NCBI GenBank assembly: GCA_963783375.1
Contig: CAWANH010000028.1
Span: 160,001-224,000 of the forward strand
From: Candidatus Eiseniibacteriota bacterium
Lineage (GTDB): Bacteria; Eisenbacteria; RBG-16-71-46; JABDJR01
Length of the DNA: 64,000 nucleotides
Direction of reading: 5' to 3'
A program made the position numbers and the translations under genes. Positions 34,963 through 59,991 of this stretch are shown here, piece by piece. Each line of letters begins with the position of its first letter. Position 1 is the stretch's first letter. The notes below the pieces were generated by a model. That model worked only from the letters and a program-made list of their open reading frames with translations, searched no databases and had not been told where the DNA came from.

Positions 34963-35745
34963 TCAGTTCCCCTTGAAATCCGGTTTGCGTTTCTCCAGGA
35001 AGGCGGCCGTCCCTTCCTTCATGTCGTCGGTGGCGGCGGAAAGCCCGAAGAGGTGCGCCTCCCAGCCCAGAGCATCGTCGAGCCCCATCTCCATCCCCCC
35101 GTGGACCGCCTCCATGGAGAACCGGAGCGCGAGGGGCCCCTTCTCCATCAGGGTACCCGCGAGCTTCCGAGCCGCATCCATGAGCTCGGCGGCGGGCACC
35201 ACCTGGTTCACCAATCCCATGGACAGAGCTTCCTCGGCCTTCACCATCCGGCCGGTCAGGATCAGGTCCATGGCGCGCCCCTTCCCCACCAGCCGGGCCA
35301 GGCGCTGGGTGCCCCCGTAGCCGGGGATGATCCCCAGGTTCACCTCGGGCTGACCCAGGCGGGCAGTGTCCGCGGCGACCCTCAGCGTACAGGCCATGGC
35401 AACCTCGCAGCCGCCCCCCAGGGCGAACCCGTTGATTGCGGCGATGATCGGTTTCCCCAAAAGCTCCATCTCCCGGGTCAACCGCTGGCCGCGCCGGGCG
35501 AAGTCTACCGCCTCCACCGTCCCCAGCCGGGCCAGCTCGGCGATGTCGGCGCCGGCGGCGAAGGCCTTCTCCCCGCTCCCGGTCAGGATCACCACCTTGA
35601 CCGCGGGGTCGTGCTTGGCCCGGGACACGGCCTCGGAGAGTTCGCCGACGAGCTGGACGTTGAGGGCGTTCAGGACCTGTGGACGGTTGAGCGTCACCAG
35701 GGCGATGCCGCCTTCGGTTGTGTAGGACAGGGTCTCGAATGCCAT
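34963..35745 (-). CDS. Enoyl-CoA hydratase (crotonase family)
   Basis: MAFETLSY..; KAFAAGADI, GFALGGGCE, GQPEVNLGIIPGYGGTQRL; ATG overlaps the hbd stop. Confidence 0.93.
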   Translation of the reverse strand: MAFETLSYTTEGGIALVTLNRPQVLNALNVQLVGELSEAVSRAKHDPAVKVVILTGSGEKAFAAGADIAELARLGTVEAVDFARRGQRLTREMELLGKPIIAAINGFALGGGCEVAMACTLRVAADTARLGQPEVNLGIIPGYGGTQRLARLVGKGRAMDLILTGRMVKAEEALSMGLVNQVVPAAELMDAARKLAGTLMEKGPLALRFSMEAVHGGMEMGLDDALGWEAHLFGLSAATDDMKEGTAAFLEKRKPDFKGN

Positions 35746-36629
35746 CAGATGAGTCCTTCCGTGGGCCGGGGCGGATCCTGGGAGTAGTCGTAGAACCCCT
35801 TCCCCGATTTCCGCCCGTAGTACCCGGCCAGGACCATGCGCTTGAGCAGGGTCGGCGCGGCGTACTGCGGGCCCTTGAATTCGTCGAACATGATGTTCGC
35901 GATGTAGTAGGTGGTGTCGAGGCCGACGAAGTCGAGGAGCGTGAACGGTCCCATGGGGTGGCCGGTGCCGAGCTTCATCCCCTGGTCGATGTCCTCGATC
36001 GAGGCCACGCCCTTCTCCAGGGCGCGAACCGCGTCGAGGAGGTAGGGAACGAGGAGCAGGTTGACCACGAACCCCGGGCTGTCCTTGACCAGGATGGGCG
36101 ACTTGCCGAGCTTCCGCGCGAAGGCCATCCCGGTTTCCACGGTGTCCGGGGAGGTGCGGACGGTCTTCACCACCTCCACCAGCTTCATGACGGGAACCGG
36201 GTTGAAGAAGTGGAGGCCGAGAAAGCGCTCGGGGCGGCCGGTCATGGCTGCCATCTCGGTGATCGAAAGGCTCGAGGTGTTGCTGGCCAGGACCGTGGTC
36301 TCGGGGCAGGCGCGGTCGAGGACGGTGAAGACCTCGCGCTTGAGATCGATGCTTTCGGTGACCGCTTCGATGACCAGGTCCGATTCGCCCAGGGCTTCCA
36401 GGTCGGTGGTCCCCTGGATGCGGGCGAGGGCGGCGTCCGCGTCCTCGCGGGAGAGCTTGCTCTTGGCCACCGCGCCGTCCAGGAACTTCCGGATCCGGGC
36501 GAGGCCCTTGTCGAGGAGAGCCTGATCGACCTCGCGAACCGTGACCTTGAGGCCGGCCTGGGCCGCGCTCTGAACGATGCCGGCGCCCATGAGTCCGCAC
36601 CCGACCACGCCCACCCGTTTCACTTCCAT
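35745..36629 (-). CDS. hbd: 3-hydroxybutyryl-CoA dehydrogenase
   Basis: GVVGCGLMGAGI, ASNTSS, HFFNPVPVMKLVE, PMGPFTLLDFVGLD. Confidence 0.9.
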   Translation of the reverse strand: MEVKRVGVVGCGLMGAGIVQSAAQAGLKVTVREVDQALLDKGLARIRKFLDGAVAKSKLSREDADAALARIQGTTDLEALGESDLVIEAVTESIDLKREVFTVLDRACPETTVLASNTSSLSITEMAAMTGRPERFLGLHFFNPVPVMKLVEVVKTVRTSPDTVETGMAFARKLGKSPILVKDSPGFVVNLLLVPYLLDAVRALEKGVASIEDIDQGMKLGTGHPMGPFTLLDFVGLDTTYYIANIMFDEFKGPQYAAPTLLKRMVLAGYYGRKSGKGFYDYSQDPPRPTEGLI

Positions 36630-36894: not shown

Positions 36895-38589
36895 TCAACC
36901 GACTGATTCGGTCCGGTTGTCGCCCCGTGGAATCGGGCTGGCCCCCGGCGGGGGGACTCCGGTGCGATGGATTGCCGCCGCACCGACCGACGACGCCTCC
37001 CCGGGTTCGCGACGAGGCGTCCTAGGCGACGCCTCCCCGGGTTCGCGACGAGGCGTCCTAGGCGATGCTTCCCCGGGTTCGCGAAGAGGCGTTCTAGGCG
37101 ATGCTTCCCCGGGTACACGATTCGGCGATCCTGGCGATGCCTCCCCGGATTCGCGATGACGCGCCCTGGGCAGTGCTTCCCCGGGTACACATTGAGAGGG
37201 GAGCTCCGCGCACTTCCGTTCGATGTGCGCTTCCGCGCGCTCCCGCGCGCGGTCCCCCATCTCGTGGATGGCGCGGTGGCAGCTCGCGCAGAGGGTCACC
37301 AGGTTTTCCATCGTGTTCGCTCCCCCGGCCGCACGCGGTGACCGGTGGTGCACGGCGAGGAACCGCGAGCTTCCGCACCCCGCAACGCAACAACGGTGAC
37401 CATCCCGCTCCAGGACCGCCCGGCGGAGCGACGGCGGAATCGTCGCCCGGTTCCGCTTCCCGGGGCGATGAACCTGCGCATCACAGAGGACGGCTTCCAG
37501 TTCGGCGGCACGGAGGGACTTCGACCCGCGGCCCGTCACGACAGCGCCCGTGTTGCAGTCCGGGCACTGCTGAACGACGACCTGGTAGGTCCGGAGCGGC
37601 GCTCGCCAGGTCGCCTCGGGTGGGCCGGCCGGAGCTTCGTGGACGCGGATGCCGCCTGCCGCCCTGGGCTCAGGTTCGGCGGCACCGGCGTGACCGGGCC
37701 GCACCCCGGTCCGGGCGGAACATCGCGTTCCAAGGACGCCCGGCCCCCGCCTCGACCTTGCGTCTCCGCTCGTCGGCATTTTGGCGGCCGGCCCGGTTCC
37801 GGGAGTAGATGCGTTTCCAACCGTGGACGGCGTTTCATCAAAGGTGATGGGGCGTTCGCCAGCGGCCACCCGCCCCCGGCCCTGCCCGAGCAGCGCGGCG
37901 AGCCCGGCCACGACCAGGTCTTCCACGGGGCCCTTCCAGCCTTCCTTGCGGAGCCTCTCCACCAGGGCGCCATACTCCGCGTACTGGAGCGCGGGGAAGC
38001 GGAGCCGGACCTCCTCGGGCATCGCGCGAATCAGGTCGGGCACCTCGGGGCCCCGAACCACGACGCCATTGCCGGTCGGCGGGGCGTCGTTCGCCTCGGC
38101 AGGCTTGTGTCCGGGCTCCTCAGTGGCCGCCAGCGAGGTTAGAGCGAGACTCCCCTGATCCCGCCCGGGACCACGAGCCTCCCGCGCCCGCCCCCGGGCG
38201 ATCGCGATCTTCTTCTCCAGCGCGCGGCGGCTCGATCGCTTCGCTTCGCTGACCCAGGCGCGTTCGGTCTCGGGTGTGGCCACCCTCACGACCTCCCTCG
38301 CCTTGGTCCAGGGCATCTCTCCGGCGGCGAGAGATCTGTGAAGGATGGGCAGCTCGGCCAGGGACCCCGCGAGGCGGATGTAGGCGGAGCATCGGCTCCT
38401 GGAAAACCCGTGTTGTTCGGCGGTGTAGGCGTAGATCGAGGTGTAGCCGAGCTCGAGGTAGAGCCTGCGGCGAAGGATGTCGGAGAACCAGAGGACGAGG
38501 TTCTTCCGCGCAGCCTCAGCTTCTGTGAGCGTATGACTGAATCGCTCGTGGGCCCGGCGCGCGGGCAGGTTCGGTTCGAATTTCGGCAT
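36895..38589 (-). CDS. HNH endonuclease (~564 aa) with a helical N-terminal region (DUF222-like architecture) and a repetitive C-terminal tail
   Basis: RATIPPSLRRAVLERDGHRCCVAGC..LAVHH..GGANTMENLVTLCASCHRAIH. N-terminus LYLELGYTSIYAY..LAELP..LAAGEMPWTKAREVVRVATPETERAW; a CPDC knuckle precedes the HNH domain. Confidence 0.88.
   Translation of the reverse strand: MPKFEPNLPARRAHERFSHTLTEAEAARKNLVLWFSDILRRRLYLELGYTSIYAYTAEQHGFSRSRCSAYIRLAGSLAELPILHRSLAAGEMPWTKAREVVRVATPETERAWVSEAKRSSRRALEKKIAIARGRAREARGPGRDQGSLALTSLAATEEPGHKPAEANDAPPTGNGVVVRGPEVPDLIRAMPEEVRLRFPALQYAEYGALVERLRKEGWKGPVEDLVVAGLAALLGQGRGRVAAGERPITFDETPSTVGNASTPGTGPAAKMPTSGDARSRRGPGVLGTRCSARTGVRPGHAGAAEPEPRAAGGIRVHEAPAGPPEATWRAPLRTYQVVVQQCPDCNTGAVVTGRGSKSLRAAELEAVLCDAQVHRPGKRNRATIPPSLRRAVLERDGHRCCVAGCGSSRFLAVHHRSPRAAGGANTMENLVTLCASCHRAIHEMGDRARERAEAHIERKCAELPSQCVPGEALPRARHRESGEASPGSPNRVPGEASPRTPLREPGEASPRTPRREPGEASPRTPRREPGEASSVGAAAIHRTGVPPPGASPIPRGDNRTESVG
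36991..37190. repeat. 6 x 36-bp tandem repeat with a GC(C/T)TCCCCGG core in the HNH 3' end
   Basis: Unit starts at 36991, 37027, 37063, 37099, 37135 and 37171; encodes PGEASPRTPRRE-type 12-mers. Confidence 0.9.
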
Positions 38590-38637
38590 GATGCGACCTT
38601 CCCGGAGTTGGATTGGACGGGGAAAGTCGATACCAGG

Positions 38638-38666
38638 AGTATGCCTGGTAGTCATCGATATGTCAA
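38638..38666 (-). promoter_or_regulatory. sigma70 promoter of the HNH gene
   Basis: TTGACA-N17-CATACT with an upstream A/T-rich tract, inside an AT-rich patch of otherwise GC-rich DNA. Confidence 0.75.
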
Positions 38667-38722
38667 TATAAAAAATTCCAAGGAATGCGTTTTTTATGCG
38701 ACGTCCACGTGAGGCAGGTCGT

Positions 38723-40004
38723 GTGCGTCCCCGGGGAAGCAATGTTCGCAATAAAGACCGCGCAACAAACATCCGCCGCCATTCAGCCATCGATCGACCG
38801 ACCTGGGGGATTGGACACGGCTCACGGACGCGGACCCGCGGGCGCGACGCCACCGACCCCCGTGCGTCCCCGGGGAAGCAATGTTCGCAATAGGGAATCC
38901 AATGCGGTGTGGTGGTCGGGGGGAACGAGAGGGTGGGCGCACGGCGGCTCGGACCCTGGGGCGGCCGACCGGGCCGGCCCTGCCCCCGAGCGAGGCGCGA
39001 ATCTGAAGGCGTGATGGGTGCGAAGCGGGTCCCGTCGCGCCTGAAGAGCGAGCGAAGGATCGTCCGGTGGACGATCCGAGGGAGCGCTGAGCGCCGAGAC
39101 GAGGGGGCACCGGCCCGGAGGCCGCACACGCCGACCCCCGTGCGTCCCCGGGGAAGCAATGTTCGCAATAGGGAATCCAATGCGGTGTGGTGGTCGGGGG
39201 GAACGAGAGGGTGGGCGCACGGCGGCTCGGACCCCGGGGCGGCCGACCGGGCCGGCCCTGCCCCCGAGCGAGGCGCGAATCTGAAGGCGTGATGGGTGCG
39301 AAGCGGGTCCCGTCGCGCCTGAAGAGCGAGCGAAGGATCGTCCGGTGGACGATCCGAGGGAGCGCTGAGCGCCGAGACGAGGGGGCACCGGCCCGGAGGC
39401 CACACACGCCGACCCCCGTGCGTCCCCGGGGAAGCAATGTTCGCAATAGGGAATCCAATGCGGTGTGGTGGTCGGGGGGAACGAGAGGGTGGGCGCACGG
39501 CGGCTCAGACCCCGGGGCGGCCGACCGGGCCGGCCCTGCCCCCGAGCGAGGCGCGAATCTGAAGGCGTGATGGGTGCGAAGCGGGTCCCGTCGCGCCTGA
39601 AGAGCGAGCGAAGGATCGTCCGGTGGACGATCCGAGGGAGCGCTGAGCGCCGAGACGAGGGGGCACCGGCCCGGAGGCCACACACGCCGACCCCCGTGTA
39701 TCCCCGGGGAAGCAATGTTCGCGATAAGGAATTTATCGCGACGTGGTGGTCGGGGGGAACGAGAGGGTGGGCGCACGGCGGCTCGGACCCCGGGGCGGCC
39801 GACCGGGCCGGCCCTGCCCCCGAGCGAGGCGCGAATCTGAAGGCGTGATGGGTGCGAAGCGGGTCCCGTCGCGCCTGAAGAGCGAGCGAAGGATCGTCCG
39901 GTGGACGATCCGAGGGAGCGCTGAGCGCCGAGACGAGGGGGCACCGGCCCGGAGGCCACACACGCCGACCCCCGTGTATCCCCGGGGAAGCAATGTTCGC
40001 AATA
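38723..40004. repeat. Array of 4 near-identical 278-bp units carrying 6 copies of a 31-bp motif GTG(CG/TA)TCCCCGGGGAAGCAATGTTCGC(A/G)ATA
   Basis: Motif starts at 38723, 38862, 39140, 39418, 39696 and 39974 (spacings 139, then 278 x4). Confidence 0.95.
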
Positions 40005-40165: not shown

Positions 40166-40906
40166 CTACCGCATCCGGATGAAGATCCAGTACCCCACCG
40201 CCACCAGGAGCACGCCGACCATGATCGCGGTCAGCTCGGGACCGTACCGGTTCACCACCGGCTGGAAGATCCCGCCCAGGGTGGGAGTGTGGAAGCCGCC
40301 CACCGCGCCCTTGGCGCTACCCCATGCGTCGCCCATGAACCCGCCGACCCGGCCGGAGGAAACCGGCTGTCCCCCGGTGATGCGCTGCCAGGGGACGAAC
40401 ACCACCACCGCCCACACCGCCGCAACGAGCACCGCGAGCCGCACCACGAACTTCACGAACCAGCCCCCGAAGGAGCGGCCGCGAAGCGCCCCGGGAGGCG
40501 CGGAGACCGCCACCGGCCGGGCCTGGGGACGATGGTTCTGCTTGGCCGAGGGCGTGGGCACTCCCTTCAGCCGGTTCAGGAAGAGGTACTGGCGGTGCCA
40601 CTCGCGCTCGAACTCCTCCCGGTCGCGCGGGCTGGGGGGCTCGCTCACCTGGAGGTTGGTGTAGCGGTTCAGGAACTCGCCGAGGCTCCGCTGATGACCG
40701 TGAACTTCCTGGGACGCCCCCGTGGGGGCCCCGGTGGTCACCCCGGCCAGGTTCTCGGCGATCCTCCCCTTCAGCTCCAGGAACCGCCGTTCCTCCTCGG
40801 GGGTCACGTCCTCGGCCCCCATGCGGGTCACCACCAGGGTCCGGTAGTCCACCCACTGGCCGATCAGCTTCTCCAGCCGTTTCTTGTAGTTGCTGTTCGA
40901 GAACAT
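40166..40906 (-). CDS. Hypothetical membrane protein with two C-terminal TM segments
   Basis: MFSNSNY start with GAGG RBS; charged helical N-terminus; hydrophobic segments LAVLVAAVWAVVVFV and IMVGVLLVAVGYWIF. Confidence 0.7.
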   Translation of the reverse strand: MFSNSNYKKRLEKLIGQWVDYRTLVVTRMGAEDVTPEEERRFLELKGRIAENLAGVTTGAPTGASQEVHGHQRSLGEFLNRYTNLQVSEPPSPRDREEFEREWHRQYLFLNRLKGVPTPSAKQNHRPQARPVAVSAPPGALRGRSFGGWFVKFVVRLAVLVAAVWAVVVFVPWQRITGGQPVSSGRVGGFMGDAWGSAKGAVGGFHTPTLGGIFQPVVNRYGPELTAIMVGVLLVAVGYWIFIRMR

Positions 40907-41060
40907 GGCGCTCTTACCTCGTTTCAGCGGGGAAGGGAGAGGTGCCACCGCTCCCGCTCCCCCGTTGGGTTTTCGAAACGCAGGTCCGGCCCCCCTGCCG
41001 GCCCCCGGGTCCGCGCTTCTCGCGGACGCTACCTGGAATCCATGCCCTCCTCGCGTCGTT

Positions 41061-42128
41061 CTACGCCCGCTTCAATCCCCGCATCTTCTCCGAGTCCTGG
41101 ATCCGCGTCACCACGTCCACGTAGTCCACCACCCCCTGCTGGTAGAGCCCCAGGAGGTCGTCGTCCAGGAGCTTCATCCCGTCCCGGTAGTGGGTGGCGA
41201 TGGCGTTGTTGATCTGGTGGATCTTCCCTTCGCGGATCAGGTTCGAGATCGGGGAGTTCACGAACATGGTCTCGCGGGCGCAGATCCGCCCCGGGGCGTC
41301 GGTCCGCCGGAGCAGCGTCTGGGACACCACCACCTTCAGGGTCAGGGAGAGCCGGGTCCGGATCTCCGCCTGGTGCTCCAGGGGGAACACGTCGATGATC
41401 CGGTTGATGGTCTTGGCCGCCGACTGGGTGGACAGGGTGGAAACCACGATGTTTCCGGTCTCCGCCGCGGTCAGCGCCACCTCCATGGTCTCGCGGTCCC
41501 GCATCTCCCCCACGAAGATGATGTGGGGCATCTGCCGGAGCGCCGCCTTGAGCCCCCGCACGTATCCCTTGGTGTCGAACCCGATCTCGCGCTGGTCGAT
41601 CAGGCACGTCTTGTTCTTGAACATGAACTCGATCGGGTCCTCGATGGTGATGACGTGCTTGGGGACCCCGTGCTCCGCGTTCAGGTACTCGATGTACGAG
41701 GCGATGGTGGTGGACTTCCCCGCCCCGGTGGGGCCGGTGATGAGGATGAGCCCGTTGGGCTTGTTCACCATCTCCATGAGCGTCCGGTCCGAGAGCCCGA
41801 TGGACCGGTAGTCCGGAATCTCCAGGGGCACCAGCCGGAGCACCGCGGCCACCGTCCCCCTCTGCTGGTAGACGCTCACCCGGTAGCGGGCCAGGTTGGG
41901 AACGTGGTAGCCCACGTCCAGCTCGCGCTCGTTCTCGAAGATCCGGCGCTGGTCCATGGTGAGGAACTGGTAGACGAGTTCCTGGGACTCCGTCCCGCTC
42001 AGGACCCACTCCGGATCGAGGGGCTCCAGGGCCCCGTGTACGTGGTACGTGATGGGCGCCCCGGCGGAGATGATGACGTCGCTGGCCTGGCGGTCTACCG
42101 ATTCGCGGAGGATCTCCATCACGTCCAT
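41061..42128 (-). CDS. pilT: Type IV pilus retraction ATPase PilT/PilU
   Basis: MDVMEILRES..ASDV; GPTGAGKSTT, ITIEDPIE, VGEMRD, AAETG, ISNLIRE. Confidence 0.85.
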   Translation of the reverse strand: MDVMEILRESVDRQASDVIISAGAPITYHVHGALEPLDPEWVLSGTESQELVYQFLTMDQRRIFENERELDVGYHVPNLARYRVSVYQQRGTVAAVLRLVPLEIPDYRSIGLSDRTLMEMVNKPNGLILITGPTGAGKSTTIASYIEYLNAEHGVPKHVITIEDPIEFMFKNKTCLIDQREIGFDTKGYVRGLKAALRQMPHIIFVGEMRDRETMEVALTAAETGNIVVSTLSTQSAAKTINRIIDVFPLEHQAEIRTRLSLTLKVVVSQTLLRRTDAPGRICARETMFVNSPISNLIREGKIHQINNAIATHYRDGMKLLDDDLLGLYQQGVVDYVDVVTRIQDSEKMRGLKRA

Positions 42129-42133
42129 GGCGA

Positions 42134-43415
42134 TTACCCCTGGTCCTTGATGAGGGTCGGCGTGATCTCGATCACGAGATCGGTCTGGCTGGTCTCGATC
42201 CGGTAGTGCCGGAAGAGATACCCCAGGAGCGGAATGTCGCCCAGGAGCGGGACCTTCTTCACCGTCTCCTTGCTCTCCTCCTGGAGGAGCCCGCCCAGGT
42301 AGAACTTCTGCCCGTCCTGGACCCGCACCACCGAGGTGGCCCGGCGGGTGGAGGTCTCGGGAAGGTCGTTGTCGGGCCCCACGAAGGCGATGATCGTGCT
42401 CACCTCGGGGCTCACCTGGGTGGTGATGAACCCGTCGTCGGAGATCCGGGGGACGATGTTGAGCTTCACCCCCACCTCGACCTTCTCGAGCTGGACGGTC
42501 TGGAAGGCGCCCCCCTGGACCCCGGCCGAGGAGAGGCTGGTGATCACCACCGGCACGGTCTGGCCGATGAAGATCTCCGCCGGCTGGTTGTTCATGGTGG
42601 TGATCTTGGAGTTGGCCAGGAGCTTGGCCTTCCCGTCGGTGATCAGGGCGTCGAGGGTCACCTCGAAGGACTCCACCTGGCGGTAGATGTCGCCGGTCTG
42701 GTCGTACTTGATGAAGGGGAGCTTGCTCGGGACTGGCGTCGTTCTGGGAATCGCCGGGGTTGGTCTCGGTGATCACCTGGGTCCACTTGGTGATCTTCTC
42801 CCAGTCGATCCCCAGCTCCTTCAGGTCGGTGGTGTTCACCTCCACCAGCCGGGCCTCGAACATGACCTGCTCGGGCCGCTCGTCGAGGTCCTGGACGATC
42901 CCGTCCACCTCCTCGATCACCGACTGCGGCGCCTTCACGATCACCCGGTTCCCGGAGACGTAGGCCCGGGCCTCCTTGGAGATCACCTCCAGGGCCTTCA
43001 CCACCTCGTCGGCGTTGGCGTACTGGAGGTCGTAGATCTTGGTGGTGAGTCCGGTCTGCTGGGCGAGACGCTGGGGGTCGGCCACCAGGATCGACCCGCC
43101 CACCCGCTCGTAGCCCAGGCCGGCGGCCCGGACCACCAGGTTCAGCGCCTCGCTGAACGGGGTGTCGTGGAGATGGATGCTGATGGGGCGGCCCTGCACC
43201 TCGGGGGCGGTCACGATGTTGAGACCGCTCCGGTCGGCCAGCACCCGGAGCACCGACACCACCGGGGTGCTGTCCGCGTCGAGGCTGATCAACTGCTGGT
43301 CGCTCATGGCCGCGGTCCCCGGCTGGGCCGGAGCCGGGCCCGGGGTCACCGCAAACGCGACGAGGACCAACCCGAGAACCAGGCATGCCCTCCAGATTCC
43401 TGGTTTCAACGCCAT
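42134..43415 (-). CDS. pilQ: Secretin (PilQ/GspD family), frameshifted near 42740
   Basis: N-terminal part has the STN/N domains and QVMFEARLVEV..LGIDW. A different frame holds the C-terminal secretin domain (GKAKLLANSKITTMNNQPA..KVPLLGDIPLLGYLF..LVIEITP). Confidence 0.8.
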
Positions 43416-43428
43416 CACGTGTGTCTCC

Positions 43429-43905
43429 TCACATGGTAAGGGTGAAATTCTCTCCGTCCTTGGTCACCGTCACGGCGCCGCTTCGGATGGAGACCACGGT
43501 CCATCCCTTGAACGATTCCCCGATGTGGAGGTCGCCCGAGCGCTGACCCTCCACCAGGATGCGTACGGTCGGGTTCACCTGATCGACCAGGATCATGCTC
43601 ACCCTGGGGGCCACGAGCGGGGGCGGCTCCACCGGTCCCCGATGCCGGGGCGCGGGAGGCGCGGGAGGCCAGTGCATGGGATCCCGGCCCGGATCGGGCT
43701 CGGCGGCGACGGCCGCGTCCCGGTCCAGCGCGGACTGGACGAGCGGGGCCTCCCCCGGAGCCGCCATCGTCCGGCTGGTCTCGACGGGCGACAGCACGAG
43801 CCGGGCCGCGGTCCAGGCCCGGAAGACCAGGAAGAGCCCGGTGATGAGGAGGATCAGCACCGCGACGGTGGCCGCCCCCCGCTGGTTCCGTTTCCGGGGG
43901 CTCAC
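43429..43905 (-). CDS. PilP-like pilus assembly protein
   Basis: N-terminal TM segment, GRDPM, Pro-rich linker, IGESFKGWTVVSI..VTVTKDGENFTL; sits just before the secretin. Confidence 0.55.
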   Translation of the reverse strand: MSPRKRNQRGAATVAVLILLITGLFLVFRAWTAARLVLSPVETSRTMAAPGEAPLVQSALDRDAAVAAEPDPGRDPMHWPPAPPAPRHRGPVEPPPLVAPRVSMILVDQVNPTVRILVEGQRSGDLHIGESFKGWTVVSIRSGAVTVTKDGENFTLTM

Positions 43906-44445
43906 GGGGAGGGGTCTCCGCTCAGGCTCAGCACCGAGAGGTTGAGCTTGAGGCTCATGTAGGGGTCGGCCAGACCGGTGTCCAGGGTGAAGGAATCCAC
44001 GAGGATGAGGGGCCGAGTCTCCTCGAGAGCCCTCAGGAACCGGATCTGACGATCGAAATTGCCGTAGACGCCCATGAAATAGGTGGTCCTCGTGAATGGC
44101 GTTCCTGGGAGCCCGATTTTGCATGCTCAGATCCAACAGACTCAGCCTGGCCGACTTCCGGAGGCGCTCCAGGGTGGCCAACGGCTCGGTGTGCCGGTAG
44201 GCCGCCCGCCAGTCCCCGTCCGCGGGAACGCCCTCGTTCACGTAGTCGAGAACCTCCCGGGCCTGGGCTTCCTGATTTCGGGCCGCACGCAGGCTCTTCT
44301 CCGCCGCCTCGCGACGGCCGGCCAGCCGGTCCAGATCTCCCTGGGCGGGCTGGAGCCAGAACAGGTCCACCCCCAGCGCCACCACCAGGAGCCCCAGGGC
44401 CAGGGCCAGCTCGCCGCGGGCGCCTCCCCGCTTCCGGGGGCTCAC
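43902..44445 (-). CDS. PilO-like protein, frameshifted near 44105
   Basis: TM segment plus coiled coil, then GNFDRQIRFLRALEETRPLILVDSFTL in a shifted frame. Confidence 0.6.
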
Positions 44446-45019
44446 TGGCTCCCCCCTGCTTCGGCTCGGCCGCCCGGACGATCACGTGAAAGCTCTGATC
44501 CGACTGGCTCGGGGCGGTGCCCAGGTCCACCTGGGGGAACCGGGCGGTGACCGCCGAACTCTCCCGAAGCGCCTGCATGAACCCCAGGACCGGGGTGAGA
44601 TCGGTCCCCCCGCCACTGATCCGCCCTGCCAGGTTCAACCCGTTCAAGCCGCTCTGTAGCCCCCCGACGCCGGCCTCGATCCTGGTCAGGATCAGGCTCC
44701 GGGGAAGCGCTCCCGAGACCGCCAGGAGCACCCCGGACCAATCCACCCGGGCCACCCGGGCCTGGACCAGGCTCCGGGCCAGGGCCACGTCCGCGGTTTC
44801 CGGCGCCGGCCGGGCCGCCGCCTCCACCTCCTCCACCGCCCGGGTCTCGTTCCGGACCCGTTCCCGAAGCTGGAAACCGGACACGATCAGAAAGCCGATG
44901 AGGAGGACCTCGACCCCCGCGATCACCCCGAACAGGGCCCCGCGGAGAAGGTCCCGGCGGAGACTCCCCGCCCGTTCCTCCCGCTCCGGATACAGGTTGA
45001 CGCGATACCTCACCCGCAC
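44442..45019 (-). CDS. PilN-like protein (probable indel near the 3' end)
   Basis: RVNLYP motif, TM segment, RVDWSGVLLAVSGALPRSLILTRI. Confidence 0.7.
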
Positions 45020-45020
45020 C

Positions 45021-46071
45021 TCACCACCGCGCCAGGCCCACCGCGCTCACCAGACGCACCCGCTCGGTGGGCGCCAGGGGGCCATCCCCGGCCGTCTGGA
45101 GATCCCCGAGCGGGTCCACGGGCACGGCCTCGATTCCCAGGGCGGAGGCGATCCGCTCTCCCAGGCCGCTGATCAGGCTGCCCCCGCCGCACAGGTAGAT
45201 CTTCGAGACCGTGTTGATCCGCTGGCGAAGGCTCAGGAACCGGACGGTCTCCTCGATCTCCCGGATGAGCCCGGCCAGCGATTCCTCCAGCACGGACTGG
45301 ATCTGCCGCCCTTCCTCTCCCTTCAGTTCGGTGAGCATCTGCTCGGCCGTGGTCCGGTCGAAGCTCAGCTCCTTCTCGATCCGCGCGGTCAGGACGTTGC
45401 AGGTGCACTCCAGGTTCCGGACGTAGAGTCCGCGCACCGGGTGCACCGCGGCCAGAACGCTGTTGACCGCCCCGAGATCCAGGACCACCACCGCCGCATC
45501 CGCCTCGGGATCCGGAGGATACGCCTCCAGGACCGCGTTCACCGCGGGGAGCGGATCGGCCTCCACCGCCCCCGGGTCGATCCCCACCGCGTCCAGAATC
45601 TTGAGCGCCCGGTCCCGCCGGGCCCGGGGGGCGGCAACCAGGAGCACTTCCTGACCGCCCGCGCTTCTCCTTGTCCTTCCCGTCCGCCGGGACCGGGGAC
45701 CGGCCCAGGATCTGGAAATCCAGACAGGGATCCTGGAGGCTCTCCAGGGGAAGGTGTTTCTTGGCCTCGAACGGCAGGGCGGCCCGGAGTTCCTCGGGGC
45801 TGAGCGCGGGGAGGGACACCTGGCGCAGGTGGACGTCCCGCCCGCTCACCGAGGTCACGACCCGGCCCAGGCGCCGGGACTTGAGCCCCAGCTCCCGCAT
45901 CAGCTCGGCCAGGGCCCGCGCCCGGCCCTCCACGTTGTCCCCGCCGTTTCCGGCGACCGCCCGGAGCCCCCAGTGGGTGAGGACCGGTCCGTTCCCGTTT
46001 TGCTCCAGGCGGACCAGCTTCACCGTATGGTGCCCCAGGTCGATCCCGGTGGCTGTACGTCGCGACAGCAA
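45021..46071 (-). CDS. pilM: PilM actin-like assembly protein, frameshifted near 45660
   Basis: GIDLGHHTVKLV; VLLVAA, VVLDLGA, IYLCGGGS, AVGLA in the second frame. Confidence 0.8.
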
Positions 46072-46125
46072 GAACCCTCCTTCTTGGCTGCGCCTGAATC
46101 CGAATCGAGCCGTATCCTAACCGGT

Positions 46126-47497
46126 TTACGGGTTGGGCGCTACCTCCCGCCATTCCAGGACCACCATCTCGCCGGTGGTCCCGTCCTGCTTGTACCAGTC
46201 GGGTCCGAAGGGGAGCTTCGCGACGAAACCGTCGTTGTAGTCAAGGGTCGGACCGCCGCGGGTCGTGAGATCCCGGAGGACGATCAGGGCCCCGGTCAGG
46301 GAGAAGTTCCCGTTGATGAGTGGCACGTCCCGGGTCACGTAGAGAAGTGCCGGATTGGCCGCGGTCCCGACGGTGACCTGGGCGGCGTTTTGGTCGAAGT
46401 CGTGGACCACCAGGGCCAGGCCGTTGTCCGGTTCGAAGGTGGCCTTGGTCTTGCAGCCGGAGCGTCCCCCCCGGCCACTTCGTCCAGTTGAGGCGATCAT
46501 CGTCGGTCGCCCCGAAGAAGCGGGTGTTGATGATGGTCGTCTTGATCGACTGACCTCCGGTCATCTGGATCTGGATGTCGGCGATACTGGCCGGGAGGCT
46601 GGCGATGATCGCCCCAAAGTTCACCACCACCGAGGTGTTCCCGGCGACGGTGTCGAGCTTGAACACCCCGTTCACCGGATCGAAGTAGTGGGCCACGTCG
46701 CCGCCCTTGAAGTCGTAGCTGAACACGCGCCGCCCCCGGACGACGATGACGCAGGTCATGGAGTCACCAGGGACGGATTGGATCTCGACGCCGCGTTCCG
46801 GTCGAAGATCTTCGCGTGAAGCGGAGTCCCCGGGCTTCATGAGGCTGTTCCCGACCACGTAGTAGTAGGTCGAGTTGGGGTAGTGGCCGGGCTCGGTGTA
46901 AATCTTGGGGGGATCGAGATGGAATCCCTCGGTGTAGGTTCCACCGCAGTCCAGGTGAACGTCGTTCTTTCCGAAGTCCGCGTCGCCGTTGGCGTGGATG
47001 TGACCGTCAAGGCAGATGTTGCCCTTGGCGTCGATATCGTTCATGACGATCATCTCTTCATTGATGCCGAAGTTGGGCACGGTCACCCAGGTATCGATGG
47101 CCCGCTTCGCGTTCCGGACCGTGCCCTCGGAGTGGACCTTCAGGATGTCCAGCGGAATGCCCTTGATCGTGTAGGTCGGGCTTCCGTTCCAGGTGGCGTC
47201 GGTGACGGTCACCGAATAGACGCCGTTCCCCTCGGCAACATCGGTGAGGGGACCGCGCCAGGCCAGGTCCTTGGCGAACTCGGCCCGCGCCCGCTCCACC
47301 CCGCCGTCGGCCAGGTAGAACGCCTCGGAGGAGTTCTGGCGGTAGAGCGCCCCATGGGTCTCGTAGCCGGCCACCGCGAAGTAGGCAAGACCGACGATGG
47401 TGACGATGAAGATGAAGACGGTGACGGTGAAGAGCGCCAGCCCGCGCTGGTCGCCCAGCCGCCCGAAGTTCCCTAGTGTCATCCGGGTCTTCCTCAT
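46126..47497 (-). CDS. PilX-like minor pilin with a large C-terminal domain (indels, including near 46450)
   Basis: DQRG|LALFTV.. leader, AFYLADGGVERA, C-terminal VVLEWREV. Confidence 0.7.
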
Positions 47498-47527
47498 ATC
47501 GGAGTCCCCCTCGCTTTGAATCCGGCC

Positions 47528-59800: not shown

Positions 59801-59856
59801 GGATGCGGCGGCGGTCGCGGTGTTCCCCCGGGTGAACGATCCTTGATGGGAACCCA

Positions 59857-59886
59857 TTATCGCGAACATTGCTTCCCCGGGGGCAC
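59857..59886 (-). repeat. Solo copy of the HNH-associated motif
   Basis: TTATCGCGAACATTGCTTCCCCGGGG is a 26-bp exact reverse complement of part of the motif copy at 39696. Confidence 0.85.
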
Positions 59887-59991
59887 AACTCTCATTGCTA
59901 ACATGTTGCACCTGGGTGCAACTCGGTCGACCGGTCGGAGCCTGATCGGGTGCGCGGCGATCGGGTTTGCCCGCGCCACCCCCAGGCCACT

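Follow-up and report, generated by a model that had tools for sequence, protein, structure and literature searches.

The locus described here lies in a 64,000-nucleotide stretch of a Candidatus Eiseniibacteriota genome (contig CAWANH010000028.1, positions 160,001 to 224,000; hereafter the window) and consists of an HNH nuclease gene, encoding the protein P0001, together with copies of a palindrome before and inside it. DNA readers of the ParB family, as in ParB-parS, Noc-NBS and KorB-OB, have been solved on double-stranded palindromes, with R173 of ParB as a specificity residue (PMC7383237, in the accessible part of the paper). The family of P0001 resembles what that source describes in its predicted N-terminal domain fold, its predicted two-fold dimer, its loop-less 16-bp palindromes with a central CG, and a specificity linked with the beginning of the recognition helix. 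It differs from ParB-parS in the fusion to an HNH domain, in being multi-copy and in having sites inside its own gene; moreover, no CTPase domain was seen (residues 1-138 consist of a single long helix and the DNA-binding domain) and no parA adjoins the window gene, which lies between hbd and pilus genes.

Multi-copy chromosomal genes with a C-terminal HNH domain are also found in the DUF222/13E12 group (REP13E12, PF02720), annotated for decades without a target and described, in the accessible portions of the respective papers, as LexA-bound insertion elements (PMC3381160), as recombination breakpoints (PMC13157036) and as repeats (PMC10589994). The present family shares these two traits and shows weak DUF222 matches (30 of 53 N-domains, best E 2e-6; 8 of 48 homologues at E<=0.05), but it is shorter, P0001 itself has no PF02720 match at E<=1, and the one LexA box type searched for is not enriched here. 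The literature found, as far as its accessible text goes, assigns neither a DNA site nor a ParB fold to DUF222/13E12 genes, and literature searches covering few subscription papers and no supplements returned no description linking genes of this type to palindromes or to ParB.

With Ssn/NTS-SRM the family has in common a nuclease gene with a repeat of its own beside it, up to hundreds of dispersed copies and a homologue-specific sequence; Ssn, however, is a small GIY-YIG enzyme cutting single-stranded hairpins (PMC11893778, accessible part), whereas here an HNH domain is combined with a separate, predicted ParB-type reader and with loop-less sites. The likeness to REP/RAYT (TnpA-REP; PMC8266576, in the part of the text available) lies in dispersed intergenic palindrome clusters, a linked nuclease gene and a repeat flanking that gene, and the difference in the absence of a loop and of a GTAG foot, in sites inside coding sequence and in the fact that no HUH/Y1 enzyme was found in the genome. 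Features of IscB, TnpB and TIGR systems were not found, neither a RuvC or Nop domain in profile or fold searches nor a conserved adjacent RNA or spacer array. Free-standing HNH homing endonucleases combine a modular DNA reader with HNH and cut alleles that lack them; the present family has the modular reader plus HNH, and a selfish spread by cutting and repair is proposed for it, but its gene carries its own sites and no intact-site empty allele was found. The system works like REP/RAYT or Ssn yet is neither.

The nuclease family and its palindrome

Our analysis supports a pairing between the protein family and the palindrome, in that every clade carries a palindrome of its own inside and close to the gene, a point that an earlier note on the window had suggested checking. 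The features involved are, in window coordinates:

36895..38589, minus strand: DUF222-related nuclease gene with a ParB-type helix-turn-helix (HTH) and HNH, 564 amino acids (P0001), from the open reading frame and Pfam
38176..38520, minus strand: predicted ParB/Noc/KorB-like DNA-binding domain, residues about 24-138, with a long helix ahead that is predicted to dimerise (models, fold searches)
38395..38397, minus strand: codon of recognition-helix position 5 (Ser65), the column covarying with the palindrome (covariation, alignment)
37864..38016, minus strand: middle domain, residues about 192-242, putatively ribbon-helix-helix-like (model)
37255..37584, minus strand: CxxC zinc motif and HNH domain; H414/H415, N429, H438 and the zinc cysteines intact
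38724..38756, plus strand: motif copy 1, an 18-bp palindrome with a 15-nt one-sided tail, ATGTTCGCAATAAAG
38853..40004, plus strand: tandem array of a 278-bp unit (4.1 units) with motif copies 2-6 (38863, 39141, 39419, 39697, 39975)
36991..37186, minus strand: in-frame 36-bp minisatellite (5.4 units) with six half-matching palindromes, encoding EPGEASP-type repeats, strain-variable
59855..59887, minus strand: free-standing motif copy with tail, between convergent genes

The earlier note had described an HNH gene of about 564 amino acids bracketed by inverted arrays of one 10-bp perfect palindrome. The reading frame from 38589 to 36895 has this length, with Pfam HNH at residues 405-442, and in the P0001 model disordered linkers connect three domains, a helical one at the N-terminus, a small one in the middle and the Zn-HNH domain. 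The catalytic and zinc residues are invariant across 48 homologues and intact in P0001; PADLOC matches to P0001 are confined to the HNH part, and a Pfam search found no GIY-YIG domain in it. The core is indeed palindromic but longer than described, namely an 18-bp parS-like palindrome with the halves TGCTTCCCC and GGGGAAGCA and a one-sided 15-nt tail. All six upstream copies and the distant copy were recovered where the note had placed them; the six 3' copies are present with their 36-nt spacing, each being only half-matching. The window contains 10 occurrences of the sequence CCCGGGGAAGCA, where 0.03 would be expected. On both sides of the gene the better half-site points away from it, and one half is imperfect in all 12 bracketing copies, with 33 perfect 16-mers elsewhere in the genome.

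The bracketing motif copies are not independent, because five of the six upstream ones lie in the 278-bp tandem repeat and the 3' ones in the minisatellite: the arrays are local tandem expansions. A database protein 98% identical to P0001 (P0002, 521 amino acids) has a shorter and different tail. Public contigs confirm pieces of the stretch, none of them spanning either array, and the array copy numbers rest on this assembly. Bracketing by inverted arrays does not hold as a trait of the family, since tandem repeats lie near 4 of 27 genes as against 1 of 27 far windows and an upstream palindrome copy is present in 16 of 60 genes, non-cognate palindromes scoring 0.

Sites inside the genes were surveyed at 86 loci, with identical proteins removed and kin kept. 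Perfect 16-bp palindromes occur in the 50 nt before the CxxC motif at 29 of the 86, mostly at -41 nt, and further places are +59 (14/85) and about +325 (10/83), distal bins holding 0-1. The palindrome sequences are clade-specific and the encoded peptides vary too (CTRVH, STRVD, LPRGK, SPRGD); the constraint therefore acts on the DNA. Among held-out proteins (141 kept from 259), a palindrome-compatible peptide was found in 66 of 141, compared with 10 of 141 in a control window, while the in-gene counts of the 60-gene comparison are circular, the sites having been defined there. Distant, longer HNH subfamilies (L010, L011, L013, L016, L018, L019) also have in-gene palindromes, some of them 1-2 bases off canonical parS. 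At L116, in G001, six copies of a short repeat containing TTACATAATC, unrelated to the palindrome, lie upstream of the HNH gene.

At the scale of the 4.7-Mb genome (G000), the motif supplies the most frequent 18-mers (46 copies). Its 59 tailed copies fall in 19 clusters, 18 of which lie outside open reading frames by a crude call; when all family-type half-sites are counted, there are 117 sites in 33 clusters (1 in a reversed-genome control), and 104 of the 117 are more than 1.6 kb from any paralogue. Five family genes are present, one of them frameshifted, with related palindromes in or beside each. The paralogue at C22:265-1760 is near-identical to a copy on C1 and frameshifted mid-gene, and the shared sequence stops at a degenerate half-site after the stop codon. 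Genome profile searches covered Y1_Tnp, HNH, HTH_ParB, GIY-YIG and LexA. No Y1_Tnp (PF01797) was found in this 97% complete genome, and a RAYT as motif source was accordingly rejected; at another place the genome has a canonical parB and three parS sites, separate from and distinct from the motif, which was thereby set aside as a chromosomal parS. Other frequent palindromes of the genome are GCCGAGGCCTCGGC (47 copies) and TTGGACCGGTCCAA (7 copies), and three more HNH matches in long frames (C28:884.9k, C26:17.1k, C29:20.1k) may represent another subfamily.

The predicted reader and its covariation with the site

Homologues of P0001 form 1,611 clusters at 50% identity (E<=1e-30), the closest named records coming from Ca. 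Eisenbacteria and Krumholzibacteriota, and within the phylum the family is patchy, with 1-15 matches in each of 22 of 153 genomes. The N-domain of P0001 is predicted to have a ParB/Noc/KorB-type DNA-binding fold. Folded alone, it reaches a predicted local distance difference test (pLDDT) value of 95; the top 19 Foldseek rows listed are all ParB, Spo0J or Noc (prob 0.66-1.0, E 0.05-0.6), the next having prob 0.06, and the top four VIA matches (Z 7.8-6.2) are the ParB-parS structure 6s6h (Z 7.8, root-mean-square deviation 3.4, 101 aligned), Spo0J (Z 7.4, 2.8, 91 aligned) and two KorB. At the sequence level, 18 of 53 N-domains give weak HTH_ParB matches. A homodimer model of the homologue P0069 scores 0.70 against 0.00 for the best control (the mark used was reached by 20 of 30 solved pairs and by 1 of 23 single chains), with contacts agreeing at >=79% across runs and pLDDT >=73; its predicted interface is made by helix 1 and the middle domain, a domain to which fold searches gave no name.

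Reader and site are linked by recognition-helix position 5: once overall protein distance is removed, it comes first among 251 columns in covarying with the half-site (60 genes under 70% identity), positions 8 and 9 ranking 13 and 45. In the alignment this position falls one residue after ParB R173, the specificity residue in the accessible text of PMC7383237. Asn at position 5 is accompanied by TG, at positions 6-5 of the half-site, in 27 of 28 genes, as against 0 of 52 without it. A tree computed with the reader columns left out shows 8 changes of the one trait and 7 of the other, and 5.5 of 6 independent pairs agree, none opposing (p 0.03-0.06). Among held-out proteins TG is possible in 17 of 19 with Asn and in 5 of 47 without, and 10 new DNA loci with a site gave 3/4 versus 0/6; the doubtful automatic site calls L087, L116 and L289 were kept in the covariation sets. 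Since the reader residue changes together with the palindrome, the protein likely docks on it.

Spread, proposed mechanism and rival explanations

The distribution of another clade's palindrome, TTGCGCCGGCGCAA, and of the gene was compared in 41 genomes around G155. The eight with 75-296 copies of TTGCGCCGGCGCAA all have 7-15 cognate-clade matches; three further genomes with strong cognate matches have 10, 6 (G171) and 1 (G180) copies, and the remaining 30 have 0-1 copies (15 with other clades only, 15 without the gene). The tailed form of the window's motif was found 54 times in G000, 9 times in G002 and not at all in the other 29 genomes searched, which include two of the same genus carrying the gene family. 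In G001 and G003 the gene at the window's site is 43-56% identical, compared with 60-81% for the flanking genes, and its palindrome differs in each; G003 also carries tandem arrays there, and G004 has an unrelated gene. The search for an empty site advised in the earlier note gave no intact-site empty allele among the genomes compared. Seven copies in G001 share promoter and gene, the common unit starting at a palindrome some 185 nt upstream; the nine copies examined there all end in palindromes at the stop codon (ragged clusters), two sharing flanks. This copy pattern fits a slow spread with gene conversion and not classical transposition. At two G001 loci (L309, L320) an open reading frame resembling an IS110-type transposase begins directly after the downstream palindrome past the HNH stop, with the same junction in both.

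Three further features of the locus enter the proposed mechanism and its rivals:

38638..38666, minus strand: promoter-like site of sigma-70 type, TTGACA-N17-CATACT, conserved in paralogues and many homologues
38582..38635, minus strand: predicted hairpin of the 5' untranslated region over the ribosome-binding site (-20.1 kcal/mol for a folded 75-mer, without shuffle control)
38962..39122, plus strand: element B, a multi-hairpin repeat of about 160 bp resembling a miniature inverted-repeat transposable element, with further copies at 39240-39400, 39518-39678 and 39796-39956

The promoter named in the earlier note is the single match in the region, read from 38666 to 38638 (0.3 in shuffles). 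Element B, a second dispersed hairpin repeat, makes up most of the 278-bp unit and has terminal inverted arms, paired changes and, in some copies, a 25-nt stem extension. Its profile gives 24 matches (15 near full length) on C28, C29, C17 and C22. As a partner RNA it was rejected, since it adjoins no other genome's family gene among the loci compared.

The best explanation of the whole, to which we give slightly better than an even chance, is a selfish nuclease-site pair, composed of a ParB reader and an HNH cutter and comparable in its working to REP/RAYT or Ssn/NTS. That the protein, a ParB-HTH/HNH dimer, binds a double-stranded site of its own is the well-founded part and is probably correct; that nick-and-repair drives the spread of site and gene and the local tandem duplications is an evenly balanced proposal. 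The predicted dimer would bind the 18-bp palindrome in the surroundings of the gene and at roughly thirty positions across the genome, HNH would occasionally nick beside bound sites, and repair of these nicks would copy the site, sometimes with the whole gene, to new places. The sites in and before the gene might furthermore act as operators which, with the hairpin over the ribosome-binding site, might keep the enzyme scarce. Survival of the host with more than 100 sites implies a tight restraint of the enzyme, and such scarcity would in turn allow that survival. Of the earlier note's suggestion that the protein recognises or spreads the motif, or uses RNAs made from it, the pairing of protein family and motif is upheld by clade-matched palindromes, genome-wide dispersal and the lack of any RAYT found; recognition is probable, spreading by the nuclease may occur, and RNA use is not upheld.

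Several observations weigh against this explanation. The 41 genomes of the G155 group are kin and not independent, the eight rich ones perhaps closely related, and the spread is patchy, with exact cognate copies numbering 10, 2 and 1 in G020, G015 and G006 and the two low counts in G171 and G180. A family gene stands at the same site in G001 and G003, so the insertion is not recent; several near-identical copies in G003 and G013 have no end palindromes, and inspection by eye of the G001, G003 and G013 copies showed neither sharp ends nor target duplication. The Asn-TG tree test is borderline (median p 0.06) and four other residue-base rules failed it; the Asn-TG rule was first spotted by eye and then tested on held-out data, and the tests on held-out proteins and new loci ignore kinship and overlap each other. 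For helical domains the fold scores are no more than moderate (Z<8, no Foldseek row at E<=0.001), a PDB sequence search returned no ParB, and profile comparisons with the genome's own ParB are not significant (E 0.39, 0.31), even if one non-significant ParB alignment still pairs GFSRSRC with GKSRTAV and WTKAR with AGHAR. Finally, 22 of 102 genes have no callable site. The window gene is without the usual in-gene site at -41, its copies being upstream and at the 3' end, and the C29 paralogue likewise has the motif upstream, so that P0001 is not the sole candidate reader.

Among the alternatives, the one that survives best, rather unlikely in our judgement, is a domesticated Noc-like or damage-response binder, whose sites would be selected as operators or landmarks and whose HNH would act under stress only, without spreading. 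It would suit a gene kept at one site in three genomes of the genus, with no match in plasmids and, among the matches listed, HNH-only matches and no full-length copy in viral contigs; the related 13E12 genes are moreover LexA-bound (PMC3381160, accessible part). Against it, the number of sites ranges from 1 to 296 between genomes, the site sequence turns over within one genus, a genome may hold up to 15 matches, some of them broken, and GAAC-N4-GTTC, which may not be the LexA box of this lineage, is not enriched upstream (3 near versus 3 far, 74 genes). At one locus (L008 in G015), CGAACATATGTTCG, similar to SOS boxes of the Gram-positive type, lies 236 nt upstream of the HNH gene; this is not general in the family.

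Less probable still is a palindrome read as a single-stranded hairpin, as in RAYT/REP and SsnA/NTS, with HNH cutting the adjoining single-stranded DNA, perhaps guided by the tail. The conserved one-sided 15-nt tail, motif clusters resembling bacterial interspersed mosaic elements (BIMEs) and a locus adjoining a type IV pilus cluster could be explained in this way. The symmetry, however, runs through the motif centre without a loop, the centre being always symmetric (39 CC-GG, 5 AC-GT) and both sides changing together; a GTAG or GGAG foot is present in none of 54 distinct copies, no common tail is seen by eye beside the sites of homologues, and the family of the reader domain has been solved on double-stranded palindromes (PMC7383237, accessible part). 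The evidence points to ParB-type recognition of a duplex rather than of a REP-type single-stranded hairpin. The tail was also considered as a second hairpin, which fits just 10 of 59 copies.

It is very unlikely that the gene is a passenger, another factor spreading the palindrome, loosely constrained HNH genes collecting it and the covariation reflecting shared ancestry. Element B, a separate repeat, does accumulate at the same places (16 of its 24 matches lie 600 bp or less from the motif), half-site distances rise with those between the proteins (r 0.48), and the genome has two matches to the GIY-YIG profile; a passenger would, however, hardly be expected from the fixed in-frame position of the site across divergent genes or from one residue and two bases having changed together repeatedly on the tree without reader columns, and no Y1_Tnp was found as a spreading factor. 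It is highly improbable, lastly, that transcripts of the upstream array serve the nuclease as guide or scaffold, in the manner of IscB/omegaRNA or TIGR-Tas and as the earlier note had considered: the predicted fold of the 278-nt unit is better than that of shuffled sequences (z -3.9 and -2.2) and the HNH part resembles that of IscB (48 bits against a cut-off of 175), but the units are 95-100% identical and without spacers, their folded part is element B, no Rfam match was found, and profile and fold searches gave no RuvC or Nop domain.

Returning to the selfish nuclease-site pair, a broader statement can be made only tentatively, at somewhat less than even chance: these genes may belong to a large class of self-targeting nucleases, whose ParB-derived reader, following a residue-to-base code, would direct HNH to a 16-18-bp palindrome in its own gene, and nick-and-repair would mobilise gene and site. 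If the pairing holds, each gene names its own binding site and the family becomes directly testable. The explanation, if true, would account for a frequent type of palindrome between the genes of RAYT-free genomes, would add a third route to REP-like repeats and a mechanism for the DUF222/13E12 family, and would widen the view of how ParB/Noc specificity evolves, so far based on two sites, to dozens of natural protein-site pairs whose code can be read. It would also provide a natural library of orthogonal long-site nickases, and dimeric binders or nickases with long sites could find use in DNA labelling and editing.

Flanking genes

The locus is enclosed by two genes on the same strand:

35745..36629, minus strand: 3-hydroxybutyryl-CoA dehydrogenase, downstream flank
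40166..40906, minus strand: unnamed membrane-type gene at the end of the type IV pilus cluster, upstream flank

Within the pilus cluster (window positions 41000-47500) there are several apparent frame breaks, affecting secretin/PilT and PilM, which are possibly long-read errors.

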